A DNA stretch of 64,000 nt from an uncultured Anaerococcus sp. (GTDB lineage Bacteria > Bacillota > Clostridia > Tissierellales > Peptoniphilaceae), in NCBI GenBank assembly GCA_943914475.1, contig CALUCE010000005.1, forward strand, positions 41,450-105,449, given 5' to 3'. Shown here one piece after another: positions 2,580 through 34,414 of the stretch (position 1 is the stretch's first letter; every line of letters starts with the position of its first letter). The notes beneath the pieces are model-generated. The model saw only the letters and a program-made list of their open reading frames with translations, was not told the DNA's origin and ran no database searches. The position numbers and the translations under genes were made by a program.

Positions 2580-4547
2580 TTAAGCTCCTACAAATGTGCT
2601 TTTCATCTTGGAAATTTGGTCACGAATGGCTGCTGCTCTTTCAAAGTCAAGCTCTTCTGCAGCCTTGTACATCTCTGCTTCCATATTTATTAGTATATCT
2701 TTAACATCATCCTTGGAGAATTCTTCAATCTCTGCATCTTCTGCCACCTTGGTAACTTGGATAATTTCTGAAATATCCTTCTTGATGGTAGTAGGAATAA
2801 TGTTGTGGTCTTCGTTGTATTTTTCTTGGATGGCCCTTCTTCTGTTGGTTTCATCTATGGCCTTTTGCATGGAGCCGGTTATGGTATCTCCATACATGAT
2901 TACATGGCCCTGGCTGTTTCTCGCGGCACGGCCTATGGTTTGGATAAGAGAAGTTTCTGACCTTAAGAAACCTTCCTTGTCTGCATCAAGAATAGTGATA
3001 AGGGAAACTTCTGGTATATCAAGTCCCTCTCTCAAAAGGTTGATACCAACAAGAACATCAAACTTTCCAAGTCTTAAATCTCTAATAATTTCTGACCTTT
3101 CTATGGTTTTTATATCTGAGTGAAGGTATCTTACCTTGATGCCATTTTCTTCCAAATATGTGGTCAAATCTTCTGCCATCCTCTTGGTAAGGGTTGTTAC
3201 AAGCACCCTATCGCCTTTTTCTATGGTCTTGTGAACTTCTTCTATTAAATCATCGATTTGGTTTTCTGTTGGTCTTACCTCAACCAAAGGATCCAAAAGT
3301 CCGGTAGGTCTTATGATTTGTTCTACAACATCCTTAGATTTGCCAAGTTCATAAGGTCCTGGCGTTGCAGAAACATAGAGAGCTTGGTTAATCAACGATT
3401 CAAATTCGTTAAACTTCAAAGGCCTATTATCAAGGGCAGAAGGTAGTCTAAAACCATAGTCTACCAAGTTTTGCTTCCTGGACCTGTCTCCCTCATACAT
3501 ACCTCCAACTTGGGGGATGGATACGTGGGACTCATCTACAAAAAGCAAGAAGTCTTCTGGAAAATAATCTATCAAAGTATAGGGTCTTGAGCCAGCAGGC
3601 CTTTGGGACATATGTCTGGAGTAGTTTTCTATACCAGAACAAAATCCTATTTCTTGGAGCATTTCTATATCATAATTTGTTCTTTGCTCAAGCCTTTGGG
3701 CTTCAACCAGCTTGTTTTGGTCTTCAAGCTCTTTTATCCTTTCCTTAAGCTCTGCCCTTATAGATTCTACTGCCTTTTCTGCCTTCTCCTTGGTTGTAGC
3801 ATAGTGGGAAGCCGGATAGATATAGGCATGGGAAATCTTTGCTGTAACCTTGCCGGTCAAGGCATCAAATTCCTTAATTTCGTCTATTTCATCTCCAAAA
3901 AACTCTATCCTAATGGCCTTCTCGTCGTTGGATGCAGGGAAAATATCTAGGACATCTCCCCTCCTTCTAAAGGTTCCACGTTGGAAATCCAAATCATTTC
4001 TTACAAATTGAACTTCAACCAAGCGTTTCATAACATCTTCTGGAGATATTTCTTGACCTGGTCTTAAGGAAACCACTAGTTTCTTGTACTCAATCGGATC
4101 TCCCAAACCATAGATACAAGAAACTGAAGCCACTATTATAACATCCCTTCTTTCAAATAAGGACATGGTAGCCGAATGCCTTAGCTTATCTATCTCATCG
4201 TTGATGGATGAGTCCTTGGCTATGTAGGTATCTGTAGCTGCCACATAGGCTTCTGGTTGGTAGTAGTCGTAGTAGGAAACAAAGTATTCTACAGCATTGT
4301 CTGGGAAAAATTCCTTAAATTCTGTAAAAAGTTGGTAGGCCAAAGTCTTGTTGTGGGCCAAAACCAGAGTTGGTCTTTGTACTTCCTGGATTATGTTTGC
4401 CATGGTAAAGGTCTTTCCACTTCCTGTAACACCCTTAAGAATTTGGTGTTTCTCACCTTTTTTGATACCATTGGCAAGTTTTTTTATAGCGTCAGGTTGG
4501 TCACCTGTTGGTTTATAAGCTGAATGTAATTTAAACTTTTCTCGCAT
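2580..4547 (-). CDS. uvrB: Excinuclease ABC subunit B (UvrB)
   Basis: 655 aa with a helicase-like Walker A motif (GVTGSGKTF), a DEAD-like DESH motif, and the C-terminal UvrB/UvrC interaction region ([10 protein letters not shown]). A good RBS lies upstream. Confidence 0.95.
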
Positions 4548-4675
4548 AATTCACTTCCTTTTAAAATATTTTATGCTTCAAGCTTGCCATGATAATATAC
4601 ACTTTTTTCCCATGATTTCAATGTTTATAAATTATAGTTGACAACTTGAAATTCTTTTTATATATGATATAATAC

Positions 4676-4699
4676 TCATATGAATAGTTGTTCATATGA
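4676..4699. promoter_or_regulatory. Candidate ArsR/SmtB-family operator: two copies of the self-complementary octamer TCATATGA separated by 8 bp, overlapping an extended -10 (TGaTATAAT, 4665-4673)
   Basis: The sequence is TCATATGAatagttgtTCATATGA. It forms a 24-bp imperfect palindrome immediately upstream of the czrA-like start at 4716, and the same octamer recurs at 6524-6563. Confidence 0.55.
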
Positions 4700-4715
4700 T
4701 TTTGAAAGGGTTTCT

Positions 4716-5018
4716 ATGGAAAAAAGTTTAAAAAATATATCAGAAAATGATCTCTTTGACCTAGCAGACTTGTTCAAGGTTTTTGGAGATTCTACCAGGA
4801 TAAGGATAATGTATGCCTTATTCTATGAAGAAAAATCTGTAACAGAAATTTCTTCAGACCTTGATATGAGCCAATCGGCCATCAGCCACCAGCTCAAGTA
4901 CCTCAAGGATAACAACCTTGTAAAGTCAAGAAGGTCAGGCAAGAGTGTCTACTATTCACTTGCTGATGATCATGTAAAAATAATAGTGAAAACTGCCCTT
5001 GAGCACGTTTGGGAATAG
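4716..5018 (+). CDS. ArsR/SmtB-family metal-responsive repressor of the CzrA type, with an alpha5 DxH-x10-H-x2-E site and no Cys
   Basis: The HTH reads FGDSTRIRIMYALFYEEKSVTEISSDLDMSQSAISHQLKYLKDNNLV. The C-terminal motif is D-D-H-VKIIVKTALE-H-VW-E. The ORF track begins at the ATG at 4680, but I prefer 4716, which is preceded by GAAAGGG and leaves the operator upstream of the gene. Confidence 0.8.
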   Translation: MEKSLKNISENDLFDLADLFKVFGDSTRIRIMYALFYEEKSVTEISSDLDMSQSAISHQLKYLKDNNLVKSRRSGKSVYYSLADDHVKIIVKTALEHVWE

Positions 5019-26964: not shown

Positions 26965-27561
26965 TTAATTATCTATTTTCAAAAAACAGTTTATTTCATA
27001 GTCTATTCCCTGAGCCTTGCCCAATTGATTTATATAGTTTGCTATAAGTTTTTGGGCCCTGGTTTGGGCATTTATTAAAAGGCTCTTGTTATTCATTATT
27101 TCTTCTTTCATATCATCTTGGGCCTTTTTTATAGCTTGGGTCTGGTCTGCCGCACTTATCTTATTTCTATTAATCCCGTCCTGAGAAACAATATAGGAGT
27201 CTTCATTTAAAGAATCTTCGTCTATGGATATGCTTAAAACCTGGGCTGGTGGCAGGCTTATATTGACTTGGTTACCATCAAGGTTCATGGTCACATCTGC
27301 CATGTCTATGCCAAGCCTTGCAAGTCCCCTATACTCTATCCAAAACTTCCTATCATTTTCTCCAAGGTGGATCAGGCCCACTCCTGCTGGTTTTTCAGAT
27401 TTGGCAACATTGTGGTAGTAGCAATCCAGAGTCGCAAGATTACATATATTTCTTACCTGGTTTATATCTGGCTTGGTCTGAATCTTTTCTCCTCCCGTGC
27501 AGGAAGTAAAGCCTACGATAGCAAAAAGGCTTAAAATTATAAGTCTCATCCTATTTTTCAT
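26965..27561 (-). CDS. Lipoprotein, DUF4230-like
   Basis: A lipobox is present (IVGFTSC). It overlaps the upstream paralogous gene by 11 bp. Confidence 0.45.
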   Translation of the reverse strand: MKNRMRLIILSLFAIVGFTSCTGGEKIQTKPDINQVRNICNLATLDCYYHNVAKSEKPAGVGLIHLGENDRKFWIEYRGLARLGIDMADVTMNLDGNQVNISLPPAQVLSISIDEDSLNEDSYIVSQDGINRNKISAADQTQAIKKAQDDMKEEIMNNKSLLINAQTRAQKLIANYINQLGKAQGIDYEINCFLKIDN

Positions 27562-28192
27562 CGCTTACTACCTCCACTTCATAGGCCTGGTCAACTTCTT
27601 TAACCCAGGGTTCTATCAGTGCCCTTACAGTACTTAGGGCATTTTCATCAGCCATTTCCAAAAGACTTTCTTCCTTTTCTGCCCTATTTTTCAAATCTTC
27701 AAGGCAGGCCTTGTAGGCTTCATGGCTTACACTTTCTGTTTCATATCTTCTTTTTTCAAAAATATAGTCCATAGTCCCTGTATCAACTCTCAAATCTAGG
27801 ATAGAAGCTTTTGGGACTTTTAGAGAGATTTTCTTGGCTTCTTCATCTATGCCTATATCAATATTTGAAAAATCTATACCAGCTGTCACCACTCCGTCAT
27901 AGGCAACGTGGTATTTTAACCTGTCTTCTTCATCCCTTACATCTGTTACCGCATTGTAGGTATAGTCTAGGGTTTCTAGGTCATTTATCTCTATTACCTT
28001 CTCTAGTGAAGACTTGGTAATAGTAGATACCTCCCCTGGCTTAGATCTAAAGACCTTGGGGACAAAAACTTTAACTATCAAAATCACCAAAATAGCTAGC
28101 ACTAGGATTCGCCCTAGAAACTTTTTTGGCAATTTAAAGCTAGGCTTTTTTTCCTCTGCCAGCTTTTCTTTTTTCTCTTCTTTTTTATCCAA
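27551..28192 (-). CDS. N-terminally TM-anchored DUF4230-like protein
   Basis: A lysine-rich N-terminus is followed by one TM helix and a domain resembling the downstream lipoprotein (LETLDYTYNAVTDV). Confidence 0.45.
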   Translation of the reverse strand: MDKKEEKKEKLAEEKKPSFKLPKKFLGRILVLAILVILIVKVFVPKVFRSKPGEVSTITKSSLEKVIEINDLETLDYTYNAVTDVRDEEDRLKYHVAYDGVVTAGIDFSNIDIGIDEEAKKISLKVPKASILDLRVDTGTMDYIFEKRRYETESVSHEAYKACLEDLKNRAEKEESLLEMADENALSTVRALIEPWVKEVDQAYEVEVVSDEK

Positions 28193-28307: not shown

Positions 28308-29771
28308 TTATTTACTTGTTTCTAAAAGCTTGGCATCTTCTCTTTTTCTAATGATTGGGAAGATTAGTCCAAGTCCTACCAAGATAACTGGTGTGATTAC
28401 GTTTAGGGCAAAGGTAACCTTGTTTTCTGAATACATACCAAGGATACAGCAAGCAAGGGTTAGGATAAAGCACCAAGCTCCCCAGAACATACCTGCACCC
28501 TTTGACTTGGTAAATTTGAAGGCTCCATCGTCCATTTCATTTTTCTTCATAAAGAAGTAGGCAACAAATACCCAAAGATACCTAAGTGGCATGGTTACAG
28601 AGTTAAGTTTGGTAATTTGTTGAAGAACTGATGCGGCAGATGGTAATAAGATTTGGATAGCAAGAATTGCTCCTGATAGGATTACTACCATTTTTATACC
28701 GTTTATATAAGCACCGTATTTGTTCTTTTTAAGTAGTTTTCTTGGAATGTATTGAGAAGTGTTGTCATCTTCTAAAAGCATTCTTAAAGGTGCATCTATA
28801 GATAGTACAAGGATAGAAAGTTGTCCAATAGCATTACACAAAGCATAAAGGATTAAGAACAAGTTTCCAAGTCCATAGTATTCTCCAAGTTTTTGGAATG
28901 ACCAGTAAGCACCGTTTGCTACATAAGAATCAAAAGCTTCTGGTGAAGCGTTGAAGATTTCTGGGTCAAACATTCTTGACATAGCAACTGTTCCAAGTAG
29001 GGCTGAAATAACAACCATAGCTGCAGCAAAAATCATTGACTTAGGAAATTCCTTAGAAGAATCTCCTTCCATCTTGTTAATGTATGGAGAAATCTTTTCT
29101 ACACCACCTACAGCAAAGACCAAGATAGACAAGCTTGTTATATATTTAATATTTATGGTTGGCACAAGCTCACTCATCTTCCAGTTAAAGGATAAGTATT
29201 CATGGTTTGGATTGATAGCTGGTGCTGCAAGAGCCAAAATAATATAAAGAATACCCATAACAAACATGGTTGATCCTGCTAGGGAAGTCATTTTCTTTAA
29301 TGGATTAAGTCCTCTTGATGCAATAAATGCAAATAAGAATAAAATAACTAAGGTTACTATTTGTACATGCATAGTTTTAAAACTATCATAAGTCTCAGCG
29401 TTTTTGAAGATCATCCAGGATATAGCCTTAAGTCCACCAGAACCCTTTGATGCTATATAGGTAATGTGCACTGCCCAATAAGTCCATCCTGCATAATATG
29501 CAAGTTTTGATCCATTGGTACCTTGGATCCAGGATGTAACTCCACCACCTTCGTCCTTAAATTTAGAGCCAAGCTCTCCTACGATCATGGCATAAGGGAT
29601 AAAATAAAGGGCAAACATCAAGATCCAGGAGAATATTACCTTTGGTCCATCAAAGTAAAAATATCCATTGGTAACATTTCCAAAGCCCCAAAGAGTTGCA
29701 AATGCCATGAAAACTAAGGATTTCCATGAAATCAAGGTTTTGTCCCTAGTTTTACTAGAATCTTTTTTCAT
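28308..29771 (-). CDS. APC-superfamily amino-acid permease (YjeM / Glu:GABA antiporter-like family)
   Basis: 487 aa with 12-13 TM helices. The N-terminal block reads LISWKSLVFMAFATLWGFGNV. Confidence 0.8.
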   Translation of the reverse strand: MKKDSSKTRDKTLISWKSLVFMAFATLWGFGNVTNGYFYFDGPKVIFSWILMFALYFIPYAMIVGELGSKFKDEGGGVTSWIQGTNGSKLAYYAGWTYWAVHITYIASKGSGGLKAISWMIFKNAETYDSFKTMHVQIVTLVILFLFAFIASRGLNPLKKMTSLAGSTMFVMGILYIILALAAPAINPNHEYLSFNWKMSELVPTINIKYITSLSILVFAVGGVEKISPYINKMEGDSSKEFPKSMIFAAAMVVISALLGTVAMSRMFDPEIFNASPEAFDSYVANGAYWSFQKLGEYYGLGNLFLILYALCNAIGQLSILVLSIDAPLRMLLEDDNTSQYIPRKLLKKNKYGAYINGIKMVVILSGAILAIQILLPSAASVLQQITKLNSVTMPLRYLWVFVAYFFMKKNEMDDGAFKFTKSKGAGMFWGAWCFILTLACCILGMYSENKVTFALNVITPVILVGLGLIFPIIRKREDAKLLETSK

Positions 29772-29879
29772 TTTTCCTCCTTTGAAAACCTCTCTTTTTT
29801 ATGTTTTCATATGTTATTATAGGACATTATGCATAAAATGTATAGTATTTATTCATCGTTAAAATCCACAAAAATATTG

Positions 29880-29908
29880 TTGACATTTACATATTAACAT
29901 GCTAAAAT
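29880..29908 (+). promoter_or_regulatory. Sigma-A type promoter of the T-box leader
   Basis: TTGACA (29880-29885), a 17-bp spacer, then TAAAAT (29903-29908). Confidence 0.7.
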
Positions 29909-29914
29909 ATGGAA

Positions 29915-30165
29915 AAGCGTTGAAAAGAAGAGTAGTTATAAGCCAGGTAAGTACAGAGAGCTCCAGCAGGTGAAAGGGAGCCTTACATCCTATAACAAAT
30001 AAAGACTTTGAGCTTTGCTAAAATTAATCTATAGCAACGGGTAGGCCCGTTATAGCCAAAGAGTATGATAGTACTTAGTAAGTTATATATTGTGAAATAT
30101 ATATGAATTTGGGTGGTAACACGGACTTCGTCCCATGGGAAGAAGTGGCGTGTATTTTTTTTAAA
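29915..30165 (+). promoter_or_regulatory. T-box riboswitch leader (tRNA-sensing transcription antiterminator) with candidate specifier AAG (Lys)
   Basis: The Stem I elements are all present: a GCGTTGA K-turn (29917-29923), the AGAGTA motif (29929-29934), the AG bulge ACAGAGAG (29953-29960), and a GGTGA distal loop (29969-29973). The specifier loop AAAUA-AAG-A (codon 30002-30004) is followed by CUUUGAGC, which aligns with B. subtilis glyQS ...GAA-GGC-A-CUUCGAGC. The T-box sequence AATTTGGGTGGTAACACGG lies at 30106-30124. The terminator is ACACG(30119-30123)...CGTGT(30149-30153) followed by T8. Confidence 0.8.
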
Positions 30166-30221
30166 TATTTTTACTAAATTTTCTACTATCATCAAGAAAA
30201 AATACAACGGAGGATAAGAAA

Positions 30222-31805
30222 ATGAAGAAAAATTTGAAGAGACTTTTAAGTCTAGTCCTGGTATTTGTCCTTTTGATCCCAGCAAATATAGGTCTAGCAA
30301 GCGATGATACCGACTCGGATGTCTTAAGAGTTGGTATGGAGGTTAATTATGCACCCTTTAACTACTCCCAAGTTAATGATGCCAATGGAGCAGTTCCTGT
30401 AGTTAACTCCAACAACGAATATGCCAATGGTTATGATGTCCAAATAGCCAAACTTATAGCAGACAAGCTAGGAAAAAAATTAGAAATTTATAAAATCGAG
30501 TGGGATGGACTTCCACCAGCCTTAACCAGTGGAAAAATTGATGCCATAATAGCTGGTATGAGTCCTACAGAAGAAAGAAAAAAAGAAATTGACTTTACCA
30601 AAAACTACTACACTTCTGACTTGGTTGTAGTTTTGAAGAAAGATTCCAAATATAAGGATGCCAAGAGTATAGCAGACTTTAAGGGGGCAAAGATAACAGG
30701 CCAACTTAATACCTTCCACTATACAGTTATAGACCAAATAGATGGGGTCCAAAAGATGACCGCCATGGAGTCCTTCCCTTCTATGATTTCTGCCACCAAG
30801 GCAGGTAATATTGACGGCTATGTTTCAGAAAAACCTGGGGCCATGGCAGCTGTTACAAGTAACAAAGACCTAGCTTATGTAGAATTCGACAAGGACAAGG
30901 GCTTTGAAACTTCATCAGAAGATACATCCATAGCAGTAGGAGTTAGAAAAAACTCAGAACTTACAGAGCCAATCAACGATATTTTATCTGACCTTTCCCA
31001 AGAAGACCAAGATAAAATTATGAAACAAGTAATAACCAGCGAAAACCAAGAAGACATGGGCTTTTTTGATCAAATGAAAGCCATCTGGTCAGAATATTCT
31101 AGCCTGTTTTTATCAGGTATAAGAAACACCATGCTAATAGCAATATTCTCAACCATAGTCGGCTTTATTATAGGACTTTTGGTAGCTGTTATTAGAAAGA
31201 TTGAGGTTAACAAAGACAAAAATATTATAGGCTATTTATTACAAAGACTAGTTAACCTCATCCTTACAGTATATGTAGAAATCTTTAGAGGAACCCCAAT
31301 GATGGTTCAATCCATGCTGATCTTCTATGGTGCAAAACAATACCTGGGTATAGATATGTCAACCATGACCGCAGCACTCTTTATAGTATCTATAAACACA
31401 GGTGCCTACCTATCAGAAGTAGTAAGAGGTGGTATCAACTCAGTTGATAAGGGACAGTTTGAAGCTTGTAAGGCCTTAGGTATGACCCACTCCCAAACTA
31501 TGTTTAATGTAGTCCTACCACAAACCATCAAGGCCATCCTACCTTCTATAGCCAACGAGTTTGTAATAAACATCAAGGATACTTCTGTACTTAACGTAAT
31601 ATCAGTAACAGAACTATTCTTCGTATCAAAGTCCATAGCAGGTTCAACTTACCAAATCTTCCAAACATATTTGATAACCGCTATAATCTACTTTGTACTA
31701 ACATTTGTAGTAACAAGGATCATTTCCTTATTCGAAAGAAAGTTTGATTCCAAGGAATTTATCCTAGAATCATCAACAGGAGGTCGCCATGCAAGAAATA
31801 ATTAA
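30222..31805 (+). CDS. Polar amino-acid ABC transporter, fused substrate-binding domain plus permease (GlnP-like)
   Basis: A signal peptide is followed by a family-3 SBP domain. The C-terminal TMD carries an EAA-like loop ([17 protein letters not shown]). The RBS is GGAGGA. Confidence 0.85.
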
Positions 31806-32526
31806 AGTTGAAAACTTAGAAAAGAAGTTTGGAGACAACTTAGTTTTAAAAAATATAGACTTTTCAGTTACACCTGGAGAAGTAGTAACCATAATAGGTT
31901 CTTCAGGTTCAGGTAAATCAACCCTACTCAGGTGTTTAAATCTTTTGGAAAAGCCTACTAGTGGGAAAATCCTCTACAAGGGAGATAACATTTTGGATAA
32001 GTCTTTTGACGAGAGAAGATACAGATCCAAGGTGGGCATGGTTTTCCAAAACTTTAACCTATTTGAAAACAAAACCGTCCTAGAAAACTGCACCCTAGGC
32101 CAAGAACTTGTCCTAGGAGTCGACAAAAAAGAAGCTGAAAAAACTGCCAGGGAATTTTTAAACCTAGTAGGCATGGAAGAATATGTAAATGCCAAACCAG
32201 CCCAAATCTCTGGTGGTCAAAAACAAAGGGTGGCCATAGCCCGTGCTCTTTGCATGAAGCCTGAAGCCCTACTCTTTGATGAGCCAACCTCAGCCCTTGA
32301 CCCAGAAACAGTAGGAGAAGTTTTAGATGTAATGGCAAAACTTGCCCAAAGAGGCATGACCATGATAGTGGTAACCCACGAGATGGACTTTGCCAGAGAA
32401 GTTTCAACCAGGGTTCTTTTTATGAACCAAGGGGTAATCCTAGAAGAAGGAAGCCCAGAAAAAATCTTCGAGCATCCTGAACACAATAGGACAAGAGAGT
32501 TCTTAAAAAGATTTATGGAAAACTAA
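31789..32526 (+). CDS. Polar amino-acid ABC transporter ATP-binding protein (GlnQ-like)
   Basis: Walker A is GSSGSGKST, the signature is [15 protein letters not shown], and Walker B is [11 protein letters not shown]. It overlaps the permease by 17 bp. Confidence 0.9.
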
Positions 32527-32540
32527 TAAAATAAAGTATA

Positions 32541-32582
32541 GACTAGCCTTTAGGAAAATCTTCCTCAGGGCTAGTTTTTTTA
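32541..32582 (+). terminator. Rho-independent terminator
   Basis: ACTAGCC...GGCTAGT followed by T7. Confidence 0.7.
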
Positions 32583-32713
32583 TCCTTTTTACAGATTAAA
32601 ATACGAAACGAATCTTTTCTGTCAATGTTCTTTGTCATTTGTTAAGTGCCTGTCTTTTTCAAGTATAAATAAACCAAAGCGACACTCGATGAAAATACAA
32701 GGAGTTATCTATA

Positions 32714-34414
32714 ATGAAAGATCCAAGAGATAAAAATAAGATAGAAAATCCACTTGATTCAAGAAACGCCAGTGTTCACAGCAAAGAGCTTAGAAGAGCT
32801 GGTGGACAAAGGGTTGCAAACAACGAAGATTCCCTTACAGCAGGAAAAAGAGGCCATATTTCTGTCCAAAATCTTTGGCTATTCGAAAAACATGCCCACT
32901 TTAATAGAGAAGTTATCCCAGAAAGAAGGATGCATGCCAAGGGCTGGGGAGCTTGGGGAGAATTTACTGTAACCAATGATATTAGTAAATACACCAGGGC
33001 CAAAATTTTCCAAGAAGTTGGCAAGAAGACTAAGATCTTCTCCCGTATGTCAACTGTTGCCGGAGAACGTGGTGCAGCAGATGCAGAAAGAGATATCCGT
33101 GGCTTTGCCCTTAGGTTTTATACAGAAGATGGAAATTGGGATATAGTAGGAAACAATACCCCAGTATTCTTCTTTAGAGATCCTATGAAATTTATAGACC
33201 TAAACCACGCTATAAAAAGAGATCCTCACACTCACCTAAGAAGCCCAAATTCAAACTGGGACTTTTGGACTTCCCTACCAGAATCACTCTCGCAAGTAAC
33301 CATAACCATGTCTGACAGGGGTATACCATCATCCTTTAGGTATATGCACGGATTTGGTTCCCATACCTATTCCATGATAAACAAAGATGGAGTCCGCCAT
33401 TGGGTAAAATACCACTTTAGAAGTCAACAAGGTATACAAAACTGGACCGACCAAGAAGCAGAATATATAGTTTCAAAAGACAGAGAATCATCCGGTCGTG
33501 ACCTTTATTCAGCCATAGAAACAGGAGACTATCCAAAATGGAAGATGTATAGCCAAGTTATGACCGAAGAAGAAGCAGAAAAAACTTCCTTCAACCCATT
33601 TGACTTAACCAAGATGTGGCCAAAAAAAGACTTTCCACTTATAGAAGTTGGAGAATATGAACTAAACAAGGTTCCAGACAACTTCTTCCAAGATGTGGAA
33701 CAAGCAGCCTTCTCCCCTGCCAATATAGTAGACGGTGTAGGCCTATCCCCTGACAGAATGCTCCAACTAAGACCCTTTGCCTATGGAGATGCCCAAAGAT
33801 ATAGGCTGGGTGTAAACCACCACCAAATCCCTGTAAACAAGCCTTTGGGAGTTGAAAATCCTCATGACTTCCATAGGGATGGACAAATGAGAGTTGACGG
33901 TAACAAGGGAGATGAAATCCACTATGGACCAAACTCCTATGGAGCCTGGCAAGATGATACATCTTTGGAAGCTGTGGTAGATAAGGGCGGAGATGTAAAA
34001 AGATATGACTTTAGAAAAGACGACCACGATTACTTCTCCCAAGTAGGCGATCTTTTCAGAAACATGACCGAGGACCAACAATTGGTTCTTTGTGAAAACA
34101 CTGCAAGAAATATGGAAGATTCAACCATGCAAATCAAACACCGCCACATAGCCAATACCTACCAAGCAGACCCAGAGTACGGAAAAGGTGTTGCCAAGGC
34201 CCTAGGCATAGATATAGATACAGTAGATCTCGAAAGAAATTACGATTCTAGAGAAGAATGGGAAAAATCCTTAGCCAAGGACAAAGACTTAGACTACCCA
34301 ACAGAAAAAGCCATGCCAGAAAGTGCCAAGGACCTTCCAGAAGAAGGAAGAGACACAAACGTAGACGATCCAAAAACTTTGTCAGATCCTTATGATGATC
34401 CTTATCTTCTATAG
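32714..34414 (+). CDS. katA: Monofunctional heme catalase
   Basis: 566 aa containing [22 protein letters not shown] (distal His region) and [12 protein letters not shown]. The size matches a typical clade-3-like core with a C-terminal extension. Confidence 0.9.

Follow-up and report, generated by a model that had tools for sequence, protein, structure and literature searches.

The locus lies on the forward strand of a 64 kb stretch of Anaerococcus DNA, all of which was analysed and which is referred to here as the window. It contains a promoter, a long leader, two genes and a terminator. The first gene, lysX (30222..31805), encodes a 527 amino acid protein in which a substrate-binding domain is fused to a permease; the corresponding Pfam domains, SBP_bac_3 and BPD_transp_1, are found at residues 35–268 and 338–508. 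The second gene, lysY (31789..32526), overlaps lysX by 17 nt and encodes an ABC ATPase of 245 amino acids (ABC_tran). The Pfam matches confirm both genes of the two-gene ABC system, a fusion of binding and transmembrane domains plus an ATPase, proposed in the initial annotation of this DNA. The operon ends with a terminator (32540..32581), a hairpin at 32540–32574 followed by seven uridines at 32575–81. The terminator folds at −21.5 kcal/mol (z = −4.3) and none of 200 shuffled sequences folds as well.

A sigma-A promoter (29880..29908) precedes the leader. It comprises a −35 element TTGACA at 29880–29885, a 17-nt spacer and a −10 element TAAAAT at 29903–29908, which is extended by TG at 29900–29901 (TGcTAAAAT, 29900–08). 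In a promoter scan this near-consensus site scored 11/12, the top promoter-like site within 29600–32800, in keeping with the strong promoter originally described; the region contains no excess of promoter-like sites overall, nine being observed against 9.2 expected. Transcription would start near 29915. From this putative start the leader runs for about 248 nt to the end of a U-tract, close to the 250 nt first estimated, and for about 307 nt to the ATG at 30222. The leader contains an intrinsic terminator (30119..30162), composed of a hairpin at 30119–30153, an A, and eight uridines at 30155–62. The initial annotation gave this terminator a stem of 14 bp and placed it about 55 nt before the ribosome-binding site. 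The U8 tract is present, but the stem is not continuous; folding gives 13 pairs in three segments (5+5+3). A simple terminator scan missed it because the stem is interrupted, and it was recovered by folding. The distance also required correction, as 46 nt separate the end of the U-tract from the ribosome-binding site GGAGG (30209..30213), which lies 8 nt 5' of the ATG.

The leader matches the T-box family (RF00230) from Stem I through the antiterminator (29911..30138). A search with this covariance model had been proposed as a check, and it gives 103.2 bits against a curated gathering score of 93 (E = 1.1e-21), covering positions 1–219 of the 219 in the model. This is the sole Rfam match within the 64 kb window and, at 103.2 bits, is therefore far beyond chance. 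The lysine riboswitch (RF00168) has no match anywhere in the window, the leader being a T-box instead. Judged on its sequence, the leader is a genuine T-box of RF00230. Minimum free energy folding of the whole leader adds no support to this, the fold being marginally better than those of shuffles (z = −1.8) and not T-box-like in structure. Such weak whole-leader z-scores are usual for AT-rich T-boxes.

Every Stem I motif listed in the initial annotation was found, within a few bases of where it had been placed: the K-turn, AGAGUA, the AG bulge and the GGUGA distal loop. Stem I (29917..30013) was delimited from the covariance-model alignment and a comparison of related leaders. The K-turn is formed by GC at 29917–18 and GUUGA at 29919–23 with GAGC at 30010–13. 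In the lower stem AAAG at 29924–27 pairs with CUUU at 30006–09, and in the upper helix GUUAUA at 29935–40 pairs with UAUAAC at 29991–96. The specifier loop has the 5' strand AAGAGUA (29928–34) and the 3' strand AAAUAAAGA (29997..30005). The AG bulge is AGAGA at 29955–59, and the distal helix and loop occupy 29960–81, with GGUGAAA inside (within 29965–75). Stem I is followed in the covariance-model alignment by Stem II, Stem IIA/B, a linker and Stem III (30014..30105). Stem II is formed by UGCUA at 30016–20 and UAGCA at 30032–36, the Stem IIA/B region consists of CGG...CCG at 30038–49 and then GUUAUAGC, and Stem III lies at about 30084–30103. The conserved T-box sequence AAUUUGGGUGGUAACACGG (30106..30124) is present as had been reported, with UGGU at 30114–17. 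In the antiterminator (30110..30135) UGGG at 30110–13 pairs with CCCA at 30132–35 and there is a short inner helix; the bulge that carries UGGU is 7 nt long. The antiterminator shares 30119–30135 with the 5' arm of the terminator, and the two structures are therefore mutually exclusive.

We compared 14 leaders, those of the window, of 12 other Anaerococcus and of one Peptoniphilus MAG. The 13 other leaders occupy an equivalent position relative to the gene and score 87–108 bits, four of them (87–90 bits) falling just under the Rfam gathering score. Compensatory (double) changes are found in 24 of the 41 consensus pairs and in all six pairs of the upper helix, and the pairs of Stem II and Stem III show many. 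Around the specifier loop, the flanking helices have 82% of their cells paired, compared with 25–43% for slid controls; none of 500 shuffles reaches the observed value, a control that overstates the significance because the 14 leaders are related. The covariation of helices across 14 species indicates purifying selection on the structure. UGGU is kept in all 14 leaders, and also in the lysK and asd T-boxes described below. UGGU implies A73 in the tRNA, which fits bacterial tRNA-Lys and also most other tRNAs. The argument from A73 made in the initial annotation therefore agrees with tRNA-Lys but carries little weight.

In the window the specifier loop has a 3' strand of 9 nt, compared with 7 nt in glyQS. 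It reads (G/A)AA-N-AAA-G-N in 13 of the 14 leaders and GAAUAAGGA in leader L051. The S-turn GAA at its start is kept in most relatives and reads AAA (G29997A) in the window and L004. Lysine is the only amino acid with a codon conserved at the specifier site in all 14 leaders. Neighbouring frames vary (AUA/UAA/AAA at positions 3–6, AGA/AGC/AGU/AGG/AAA/GGA at positions 7–9) and none that specifies another amino acid is conserved, so the frames AUA, UAA and AGA were rejected. The leader is very probably specific for tRNA-Lys, as its conserved codon, a T-box with a matching loop that is linked to a lysyl-tRNA synthetase, and riboswitch-controlled homologs of the transporter all suggest; the lysine type assigned at the outset is thus supported. 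T-boxes specific for lysine form one of the rarest classes (TBDB; Foy et al. 2010), and lysK is the sole one tested. A scan of the window and of the 18 closest loci found no tRNA genes.

When plasmid records were searched with the leader by BLAST, Stem I was matched only twice, in L082 and L081, each time by a T-box that shares the loop architecture and is linked to lysine. The L082 T-box precedes the gene for a class I lysine-tRNA ligase (414 bits to TIGR00467, which has a cutoff of 148) and has the loop GAAAAAAGA, and the L081 T-box is upstream of asd and has the loop GAAUAAAGC. The loop GAAAAAAGA is also that of the Bacillus cereus lysK T-box, for which experiments have demonstrated a response to uncharged tRNA-Lys (PMC2916919, Foy et al. 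2010). The lysK T-box of B. cereus and B. thuringiensis belongs to the same RNA family as the window leader and shares its transcriptional antitermination design, its UGGU bulge and its 9-nt loop strand (GAAAAAAGA-CUUG-GAGC in lysK, AAAUAAAGA-CUUU-GAGC in the window). The loop of the window differs in having AAA for the S-turn GAA, and U for A at the spacer. Over 93 nt of Stem I the two are about 71% identical, and the lysK loop and lower stem are identical to those of Anaerococcus L008. When a 5.5 Mb Bacillus chromosome was searched with the leader, the lysK leader was the sole match. The lysK T-box controls an aminoacyl-tRNA synthetase in Bacillales, while that of the window would control a transporter in Tissierellia, and the lysK element is supported by experiment, that of the window by sequence comparison.

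The transporter is supported as a member of the known LysXY lysine ABC transporter family, the evidence again being sequence comparison. This family was named lysX-lysY in PMC5584792 and in the RegPrecise supplements of PMC3766115, lysine-riboswitch control being the criterion by which it was defined. Among 80 homologous loci, a lysine riboswitch (RF00168, 71–124 bits) lies directly upstream in 36 and a T-box in 13, the other 31 having neither. Membership of this family, together with the 36 riboswitch-controlled loci, supports the earlier prediction that the operon encodes a probable importer of lysine or basic amino acids. The LysX binding domains are 50–78% identical across the set, and in a tree the Anaerococcus T-box clade is nested among lysine-riboswitch and unregulated members. 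In Streptococcus pneumoniae, strong negative genetic interactions link lysXY to the pathway of lysine biosynthesis (bioRxiv 10.1101/2024.09.24.614635); the streptococcal loci found here presumably correspond to spd_0411–0412. No NCBIfam equivalog reaches its cutoff for LysX or LysY, and a sequence search of the PDB gave no close structure, the best matches being generic amino-acid binding proteins (E = 1e-29 or weaker). The assignment of lysine as the substrate therefore draws on regulatory context and the literature.

The register in which the loop is read is uncertain by one base, since the structurally characterised Stem I of the glyQS type has a loop 2 nt shorter. The initial annotation aligned the loop with glyQS from its 3' end and read AAG; this alignment gives one possible register, and with loops of 9 and 7 nt it is not the sole one. 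The more likely reading from the comparison of leaders has the S-turn AAA at 29997–99, a spacer U30000, the specifier AAA at 30001–03, the conserved purine G30004 and a variable, unpaired A30005. Alternatively the T-box may sense lysine in the same way through the specifier AAG (30002–04) followed by A30005, decoded by tRNA-Lys(CUU) or by tRNA-Lys(UUU) via U-G wobble, and we consider this possible but somewhat unlikely. The default '+0' rule of TBDB takes as specifier bases 2–4 of the loop, counted from its 3' end, and gives AAG in the window; as the ninth loop base is unpaired in 13 of the 14 leaders, it gives AAG in 12 of them. A loop shortened to 8 nt by a pair between the ninth base (30005) and A29928 was rejected, since this pair holds in only one of the 14 leaders. 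In the window AAG is followed by A, which is the commonest conserved purine. Against this, loop positions 5–7 read AAA in 13 leaders and AAG in L051, with a purine next in 14/14, whereas the AAG register reads AAG in 12, AAA in one and AGG in one, with a purine next in only 11/14 (C in L005 and L012, U in L009). The AGG is that of L051, which would thereby specify arginine although its operon encodes a LysX homolog, and AGG accounts for 0.04 of Arg T-boxes. AAA, not AAG, stands at the consensus codon positions in all 12 of the Rfam alignments shown, Lys T-boxes use AAA and AAG in proportions of 0.87 and 0.13 (TBDB), and the specifier highlighting for lysK begins at loop position 5 (PMC2916919, supplementary Fig. 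S1). A covariance-model alignment with AAA in another register had been named in the initial annotation as evidence against its assignment. Such an alignment was found, and AAA is still a lysine codon. AAA and AAG both encode lysine, so the triplet changes and the conclusion of a lysine codon at the site stands. We think it very unlikely that the leader reads another frame and a different tRNA, such as AGA (Arg, 30003–05), AUA (Ile, 29999–30001) or a near-cognate tRNA-Asn. The A-rich 9-nt loop makes several triplets available, and uncharged tRNA-Asn induces lysK, whose T-box has the same loop (PMC2916919), but that response is only partial and secondary to the lysine response. The variation at positions 7–9 given above, together with that of position 4 between U and A, argues against these frames, and in the AGA frame the paired C30006 comes directly next with no purine between.

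It is also improbable that a T-box sensing tRNA-Lys controls a broad importer of polar or basic amino acids (Arg, Gln, His, ornithine). The lack of an equivalog match would fit such a transporter. Models for the LAO-type binding-protein subfamily and for permeases of arginine, cystine, ectoine and glutamine match best, but each match is partial and falls well short of its cutoff. An earlier listing gave the pneumococcal homolog as a glutamine system of the GlnHPQ type (PMC5807212), and some of the riboswitch-controlled relatives are annotated as glutamine transporters (PMC5584792). However, two independent lysine-specific RNA sensors occur on this one family in many genera (the riboswitch at 36 loci, the Lys T-box at 14), the binding domains keep the identity noted above over the whole set, and the genetic interactions of pneumococcal lysX are with lysine biosynthesis specifically. 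The change of the S-turn GAA to AAA in the window and L004, and the four related leaders just below the gathering score, could be taken as signs that the leader is a T-box relic, decaying or constitutively terminating and without regulation. The element in the window is above the threshold with every motif intact, the helices covary across the 14 species, and promoter, terminator and ribosome-binding site are all intact, and we regard a relic as exceedingly unlikely.

With high confidence, the best explanation of the locus is that a T-box sensing tRNA-Lys switches on the two-gene LysXY lysine importer. The comparisons show the RNA family with its parts, how these are conserved and covary, a lysine codon kept among the leaders, a loop identical to that of a T-box linked to LysRS, and transporter homologs under lysine riboswitches. 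We infer the tRNA response, the exact pairing register, the start of transcription and the transported substrate. Transcription would begin near 29915 from the strong extended −10 promoter. Stem I would then capture tRNA-Lys, its anticodon pairing with the specifier, most likely AAA at 30001–03 stacked on G30004, and the elbow of the tRNA would dock on the platform formed by the AG bulge and distal loop. With plentiful lysine the tRNA would be charged and its 3' end unable to pair with UGGU (30114–17); the terminator (30119–53 and U8) would form and transcription would stop near 30162. When lysine is scarce the ACCA of uncharged tRNA-Lys would pair with UGGU and stabilise the antiterminator (30110–35). 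RNA polymerase would read through, and production of LysX (binding domain and permease) and LysY (ATPase) would allow lysine to be imported.

The locus belongs to a rare specificity class with an ordinary mechanism, and the understanding of T-box function is unchanged by it. Its main interest is that the same transporter is under lysine riboswitch control in most other Firmicutes. LysXY is preceded by the lysine riboswitch (L-box, RF00168) in Enterococcus, Vagococcus, Clostridium, Lacticaseibacillus and Murdochiella, where the binding domain is 52–63% identical. The two-gene organisation is common to the window and the riboswitch-controlled LysXY of Lactobacillales and Peptoniphilaceae, whereas at many clostridial LysXY loci the binding protein and permease, fused in the window, are separate genes. 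The logic is alike, with expression predicted to be off at plentiful lysine via a leader terminator, but the sensors differ: the riboswitch binds free lysine directly and the T-box would read the charging state of tRNA-Lys. Within a single bacterial family, one transporter family is found with two unrelated lysine-sensing RNAs, a T-box in Anaerococcus and a lysine riboswitch in Murdochiella. Profiles built from the 36 L-boxes and 14 T-boxes were searched against the 31 homologous loci without an Rfam match and found nothing beyond a weak possible L-box remnant in L058 (2770–2818, E = 0.014). The 14 leaders add a well-conserved set from poorly studied human-associated anaerobic cocci, and they support lysine as the substrate of a transporter automatically annotated merely as 'ABC transporter permease subunit'. 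They are of use in annotation, and as a comparative system for asking why a cell should track the charging of a tRNA rather than the free amino acid.

The 9-nt loop is common to the lysK, asd and lysXY leaders of Bacillus, Paenibacillus and Peptoniphilaceae. A wider but unlikely reading is that GAA-N-AAA-G-N is a signature of a lineage of Lys T-boxes, with AAAG read in two registers, and that such a T-box was recruited to lysXY in place of the riboswitch. The conserved AAAG tetranucleotide contains two overlapping lysine codons. Two adjacent registers could then serve tRNA-Lys(UUU) and tRNA-Lys(CUU) respectively, integrating the charging of both isoacceptors; this would be comparable to the overlapping-codon T-box cited in TBDB, the sole experimentally studied case of alternative specifier frames. 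The Anaerococcus lineage, for its part, may have recruited a Lys T-box in place of the lysine riboswitch on lysXY. If so, the two would form a natural pair for comparing the sensing of free lysine with that of tRNA-Lys charging on one transporter.

T-boxes are found before other uptake systems, namely the importers of methionine (metNPQ), histidine (hisXYZ) and tryptophan (trpXYZ) (Wels et al. 2008, PMC2494555; Streptococcus suis TrpX, PMC9382623). In these the specifier codon predicts the substrate, as it would here, but the specificity is for Met, His or Trp and not Lys. RegPrecise lists a Lys-specific T-box on 'lysX' of B. amyloliquefaciens and B. pumilus, without lysY (supplements of PMC3766115), and the target of the Bacillus Lys T-box has been described as an MFS-type permease (Wels et al. 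2008, PMC2494555). The genome sets of RegPrecise and Wels et al. leave out Anaerococcus and its relatives, and our literature search found no paper describing the combination of a T-box with LysXY. In the summary given in PMC3766115, Met-specific T-boxes replaced the SAM riboswitch in Lactobacillales. There too homologous genes are preceded by a metabolite riboswitch in some lineages and by a T-box of the same specificity in others, as for LysXY, but that case concerns methionine and is an expansion across a whole regulon, while a single lysine transporter operon is seen here.

The operon encoding LysXY is preceded by a T-box leader (RF00230), which spans 29911-30138 on the forward strand. The match covers the full model with a score of 103.2 bits (E = 1.1e-21) against a gathering score of 93 bits, and is the sole above-threshold Rfam match in the whole 64 kb window. 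Directly 5' of the leader lies the region's best sigma-70-type site (29880-29908, +), with TTGACA, a 17 nt spacer and TAAAAT, matching at 11/12 positions and including a TG extended -10. Read against the model alignment, Stem I is textbook in form. The K-turn GC/GUUGA (29917-23, +) closes on GAGC at 30010-13 and is accompanied by the lower stem AAAG/CUUU, the AAGAGUA motif (29928-34, +), the upper helix GUUAUA/UAUAAC, the AG bulge AGAGA (29955-59, +) and a distal loop containing GGUGAAA. Next on the 3' side come Stem II, the IIA/B region and Stem III. The T-box sequence AAUUUGGGUGGUAACACGG occupies 30106-24 (+) and contains the UGGU bulge (30114-17).

Folding places the leader terminator in a hairpin at 30119-30153 (+), followed by an A and eight U residues (30155-62). 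The segment 30119-35 is common to the 5' arm of the terminator and the 3' half of the antiterminator, the two structures are therefore mutually exclusive. A ribosome-binding site, GGAGG (30209-13, +), lies before the start codon, ATG at 30222. The locus is as the initial annotation described it, with minor differences in two numbers: the terminator stem has 13 pairs interrupted into three segments rather than 14, and lies 46 nt from the ribosome-binding site rather than about 55 nt.

Twelve other Anaerococcus loci and one Peptoniphilus MAG carry the element in the corresponding position. Of these 13 leaders, nine exceed the Rfam threshold and the other four have scores of 87-90 bits. In an alignment of all 14 leaders, compensatory double changes occur in 24 of 41 consensus pairs. 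Pairs were also counted over explicitly written-out helices, namely the K-turn stem, the lower stem and the upper helix. In this count all six pairs of the upper helix have double changes, and standard pairs fill 82% of cells, compared with 25-43% after shifting the partner by 1-3 columns. No shuffle reached the observed pair values, a control that the relatedness of the sequences makes generous. The pair counts of the flanking helices thus fix the boundaries of the specifier loop, whose 3' strand comprises nine bases, the ninth pairing with the opposite base in just one of the 14 leaders. In five leaders (A. vaginalis, A. senegalensis, A. rubeinfantis, A. ihuae and A. porci; L001-L005) an insertion of about 40-45 nt separates the IIA/B region from Stem III (alignment A1 columns 165-204; about 2816-2856 in L001). 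It resembles a local duplication (GTATAATTTTGTACTT ... GTATATTTTGTACTT) and is absent from the window leader, although the window protein groups with that clade.

The nine-base strand of the window is AAAUAAAGA (29997-30005). Across the leaders the loop reads (G/A)AA, U or A, AAA, G (A in L007) and then any of A, C, U or G, the exception being one leader (L051), which has GAAUAAGGA. The outer frames, AUA/UAA and AGA/AGC/AGU/AGG, are without any conservation among the 14 leaders, so lysine is the only specifier reading that is conserved. At the conserved S-turn the window (29997) and A. ihuae (L004, 2753) depart from consensus, with AAA in place of GAA; GAA is kept in all other leaders and in the lysK and asd T-boxes described below.

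A lysine codon can be read in two registers. The initial annotation proposed AAG at loop positions 6-8 (30002-04), a choice which the default rule of the T-box database TBDB also makes, taking bases 2-4 from the loop end. In this register 12 leaders have AAG, one has AAA and L051 would have AGG, an arginine codon that accounts for just 0.04 of Arg T-box specifiers (TBDB). The following base is a purine in 11 of the 14 leaders, with C twice and U once, compared with 14 of 14 if the specifier is placed at loop positions 5-7 (30001-03), where 13 leaders have AAA and one has AAG. The Rfam model string GAAauuca is aligned to (G/A)AA-N-AAA-G in 12 of the 12 alignments shown, and AAA makes up 0.87 of Lys T-box specifiers compared with 0.13 for AAG (TBDB). 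The purine rule, the Rfam alignments and the codon usage lead us to favour AAA (30001-03) as the specifier, with some confidence. AAG is a possible but distinctly less likely specifier, and there is a small chance that both registers are usable. The lysine specificity proposed in the initial annotation is supported, while the evidence leans away from its choice of triplet.

We compared the leader with Lys T-boxes whose downstream genes are informative. In B. cereus the lysK leader has TTAATGAAAAAAGACTTGGAGC, its highlighted specifier starting at loop position 5. Uncharged tRNA-Lys induces this element, and tRNA-Asn does so in part (PMC2916919, supplementary Fig. S1 for the loop). The window loop shares the 9-nt architecture, with two positions differing, of the one Lys T-box to have been tested. 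A blast search of the leader against a plasmid collection, which includes some mislabelled chromosomes, gave only two matches covering Stem I (L081 and L082), both T-boxes above the Rfam threshold and sharing this loop architecture. In L082 the T-box (2990-3246; loop GAAAAAAGA) lies 5' of a lysK ORF (3329-4882) encoding a 517 aa class I lysine-tRNA ligase (TIGR00467, 414 bits, cutoff 148). The record, 'Bacillus sp. N5-665 plasmid p1', is 5.5 Mb long, evidently a chromosome deposited under a plasmid label. In L081, an 897 kb Paenibacillus cellulositrophicus replicon, the T-box (3000-3267; loop GAAUAAAGC) lies 5' of asd (3465-4550). The asd enzyme stands at the branch point leading to lysine. 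We found no description of a regulatory link between a Lys T-box and asd.

The first gene of the operon, lysX (30222-31805, +), encodes a 527 aa protein in which a family-3 solute-binding domain is fused to a binding-protein-dependent permease domain. Overlapping this gene by 17 nt, lysY (31789-32526, +) encodes a 245 aa ABC ATPase. A strong terminator (z = -4.3) follows at 32540-81 (+). An identical protein is present in MAGs labelled Anaerococcus sp. or Peptoniphilaceae, and the nearest relatives in the genome collection are Anaerococcus species with 63-75% identity. No NCBIfam equivalog reaches its cutoff for the window transporter proteins, and a PDB sequence search finds generic amino-acid binding proteins.

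The family models do not decide the substrate, and the prediction of lysine comes from genomic context. We collected 80 homologous loci from different species, whose binding domains are 50-78% identical. The lysine riboswitch (RF00168, 71-124 bits) is found directly 5' of the transporter in 36 of them, including Enterococcus, Vagococcus, Lapidilactobacillus, Aerococcus, many Clostridia, Schinkia (Bacillaceae) and Murdochiella. These homologs belong to the lysX-lysY family, which has been proposed as a lysine ABC transporter (PMC5584792; RegPrecise tables of PMC3766115) because of such upstream riboswitches (PMC5584792). In S. pneumoniae, strong negative genetic interactions link lysXY (spd_0411-0412) to the pathway of lysine biosynthesis (bioRxiv 10.1101/2024.09.24.614635); judging by taxonomy and architecture, the streptococcal loci of our set probably correspond to spd_0411. 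Annotation of the family is inconsistent across sources: a 2017 review lists spd_0411-0412 as a glutamine GlnHPQ-type system (PMC5807212), and the 2024 Dual Tn-seq preprint as the lysine transporter lysXY (bioRxiv 10.1101/2024.09.24.614635). The regulation of relatives and the genetics of this distant homolog suggest that the window transporter imports lysine.

T-boxes are found in 13 of the 80 loci. The remaining 31 have neither RF00168 nor a T-box, even with sensitive sequence profiles; these are from Finegoldia, Gallicola, Facklamia, Streptococcus and Pseudolactococcus, and include Peptoniphilaceae/Tissierellia loci (L006, L010, L013, L016 and L018) as well as the streptococcal loci L062-L080. 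The Finegoldia lysX homolog begins straight after the preceding ORF. The T-box loci of Anaerococcus make up a single clade of the neighbour-joining tree, and this clade is nested among members under riboswitch control and unregulated ones; Murdochiella, with the riboswitch, belongs to the same family as Anaerococcus. Regulation of the transporter turns over quickly, even inside one family. The Bacillus benzoevorans homolog (L058) is preceded by a weak, partial match to a lysine-riboswitch sequence profile (2770-2818; nhmmer E = 0.014) that may be a degenerate riboswitch remnant.

By analogy with the T-box family and the lysK precedent, the leader is expected to respond to tRNA-Lys through a mechanism that is standard for T-boxes. 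With ample lysine, charged Lys-tRNA would bind Stem I with an acylated 3' end unable to pair with UGGU, the terminator would form and transcription would stop near 30162. Under lysine limitation, the anticodon and the ACCA end of uncharged tRNA-Lys would both pair and so lock the antiterminator, LysXY would be made and lysine imported.

Lys T-boxes are among the least common classes (TBDB), yet they are already known, those on LysRS occurring in four species in 891 genomes (PMC2916919). ABC importers under T-box control are also known (PMC2494555). In RegPrecise, two Bacillus genomes have a Lys T-box entry for a gene named lysX (PMC3766115), a likeness in gene name to the window LysX rather than an established common protein family. 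Our literature search found no paper on the Anaerococcus element, or on LysXY alternating between control by the lysine riboswitch and by a Lys T-box; the sequences of these leaders are probably already in automatic databases. Of modest interest are the swap of sensors inside one bacterial family and the 9-nt AAAG loop common to Lys T-boxes.

The binding protein and permease are fused in Anaerococcus, Enterococcus, Streptococcus and relatives. They are separate ORFs, the first of about 270-340 aa, in many clostridial loci and the Peptoniphilus MAG (L031, L034, L036, L040, L042, L048, L051-L053, L057, L058, L060, L063, L065, L069 and L070), so the LysX family has undergone fusion or fission. 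Other Rfam matches at the homologous loci are a c-di-GMP-I riboswitch 3' of the Desulfitobacterium lysXY locus (L060, 7015-7097), a Clostridiales-1 RNA (L067, 2271-2352, -) and L13 leaders (L019, 109-165, -; L025, 763-819, -).

In the window, an APC-family amino-acid permease (28308-29771, -) is divergent from lysXY, and the T-box promoter lies in the intergenic region between the two. It is YjeM-like, far under the equivalog cutoff, and beyond it are two tandem DUF4230 genes (26965-28192, -). Directly 3' of lysXY this apparently anaerobic coccus carries a full-length catalase gene (32714-34414, +; Pfam Catalase, E = 8e-176).
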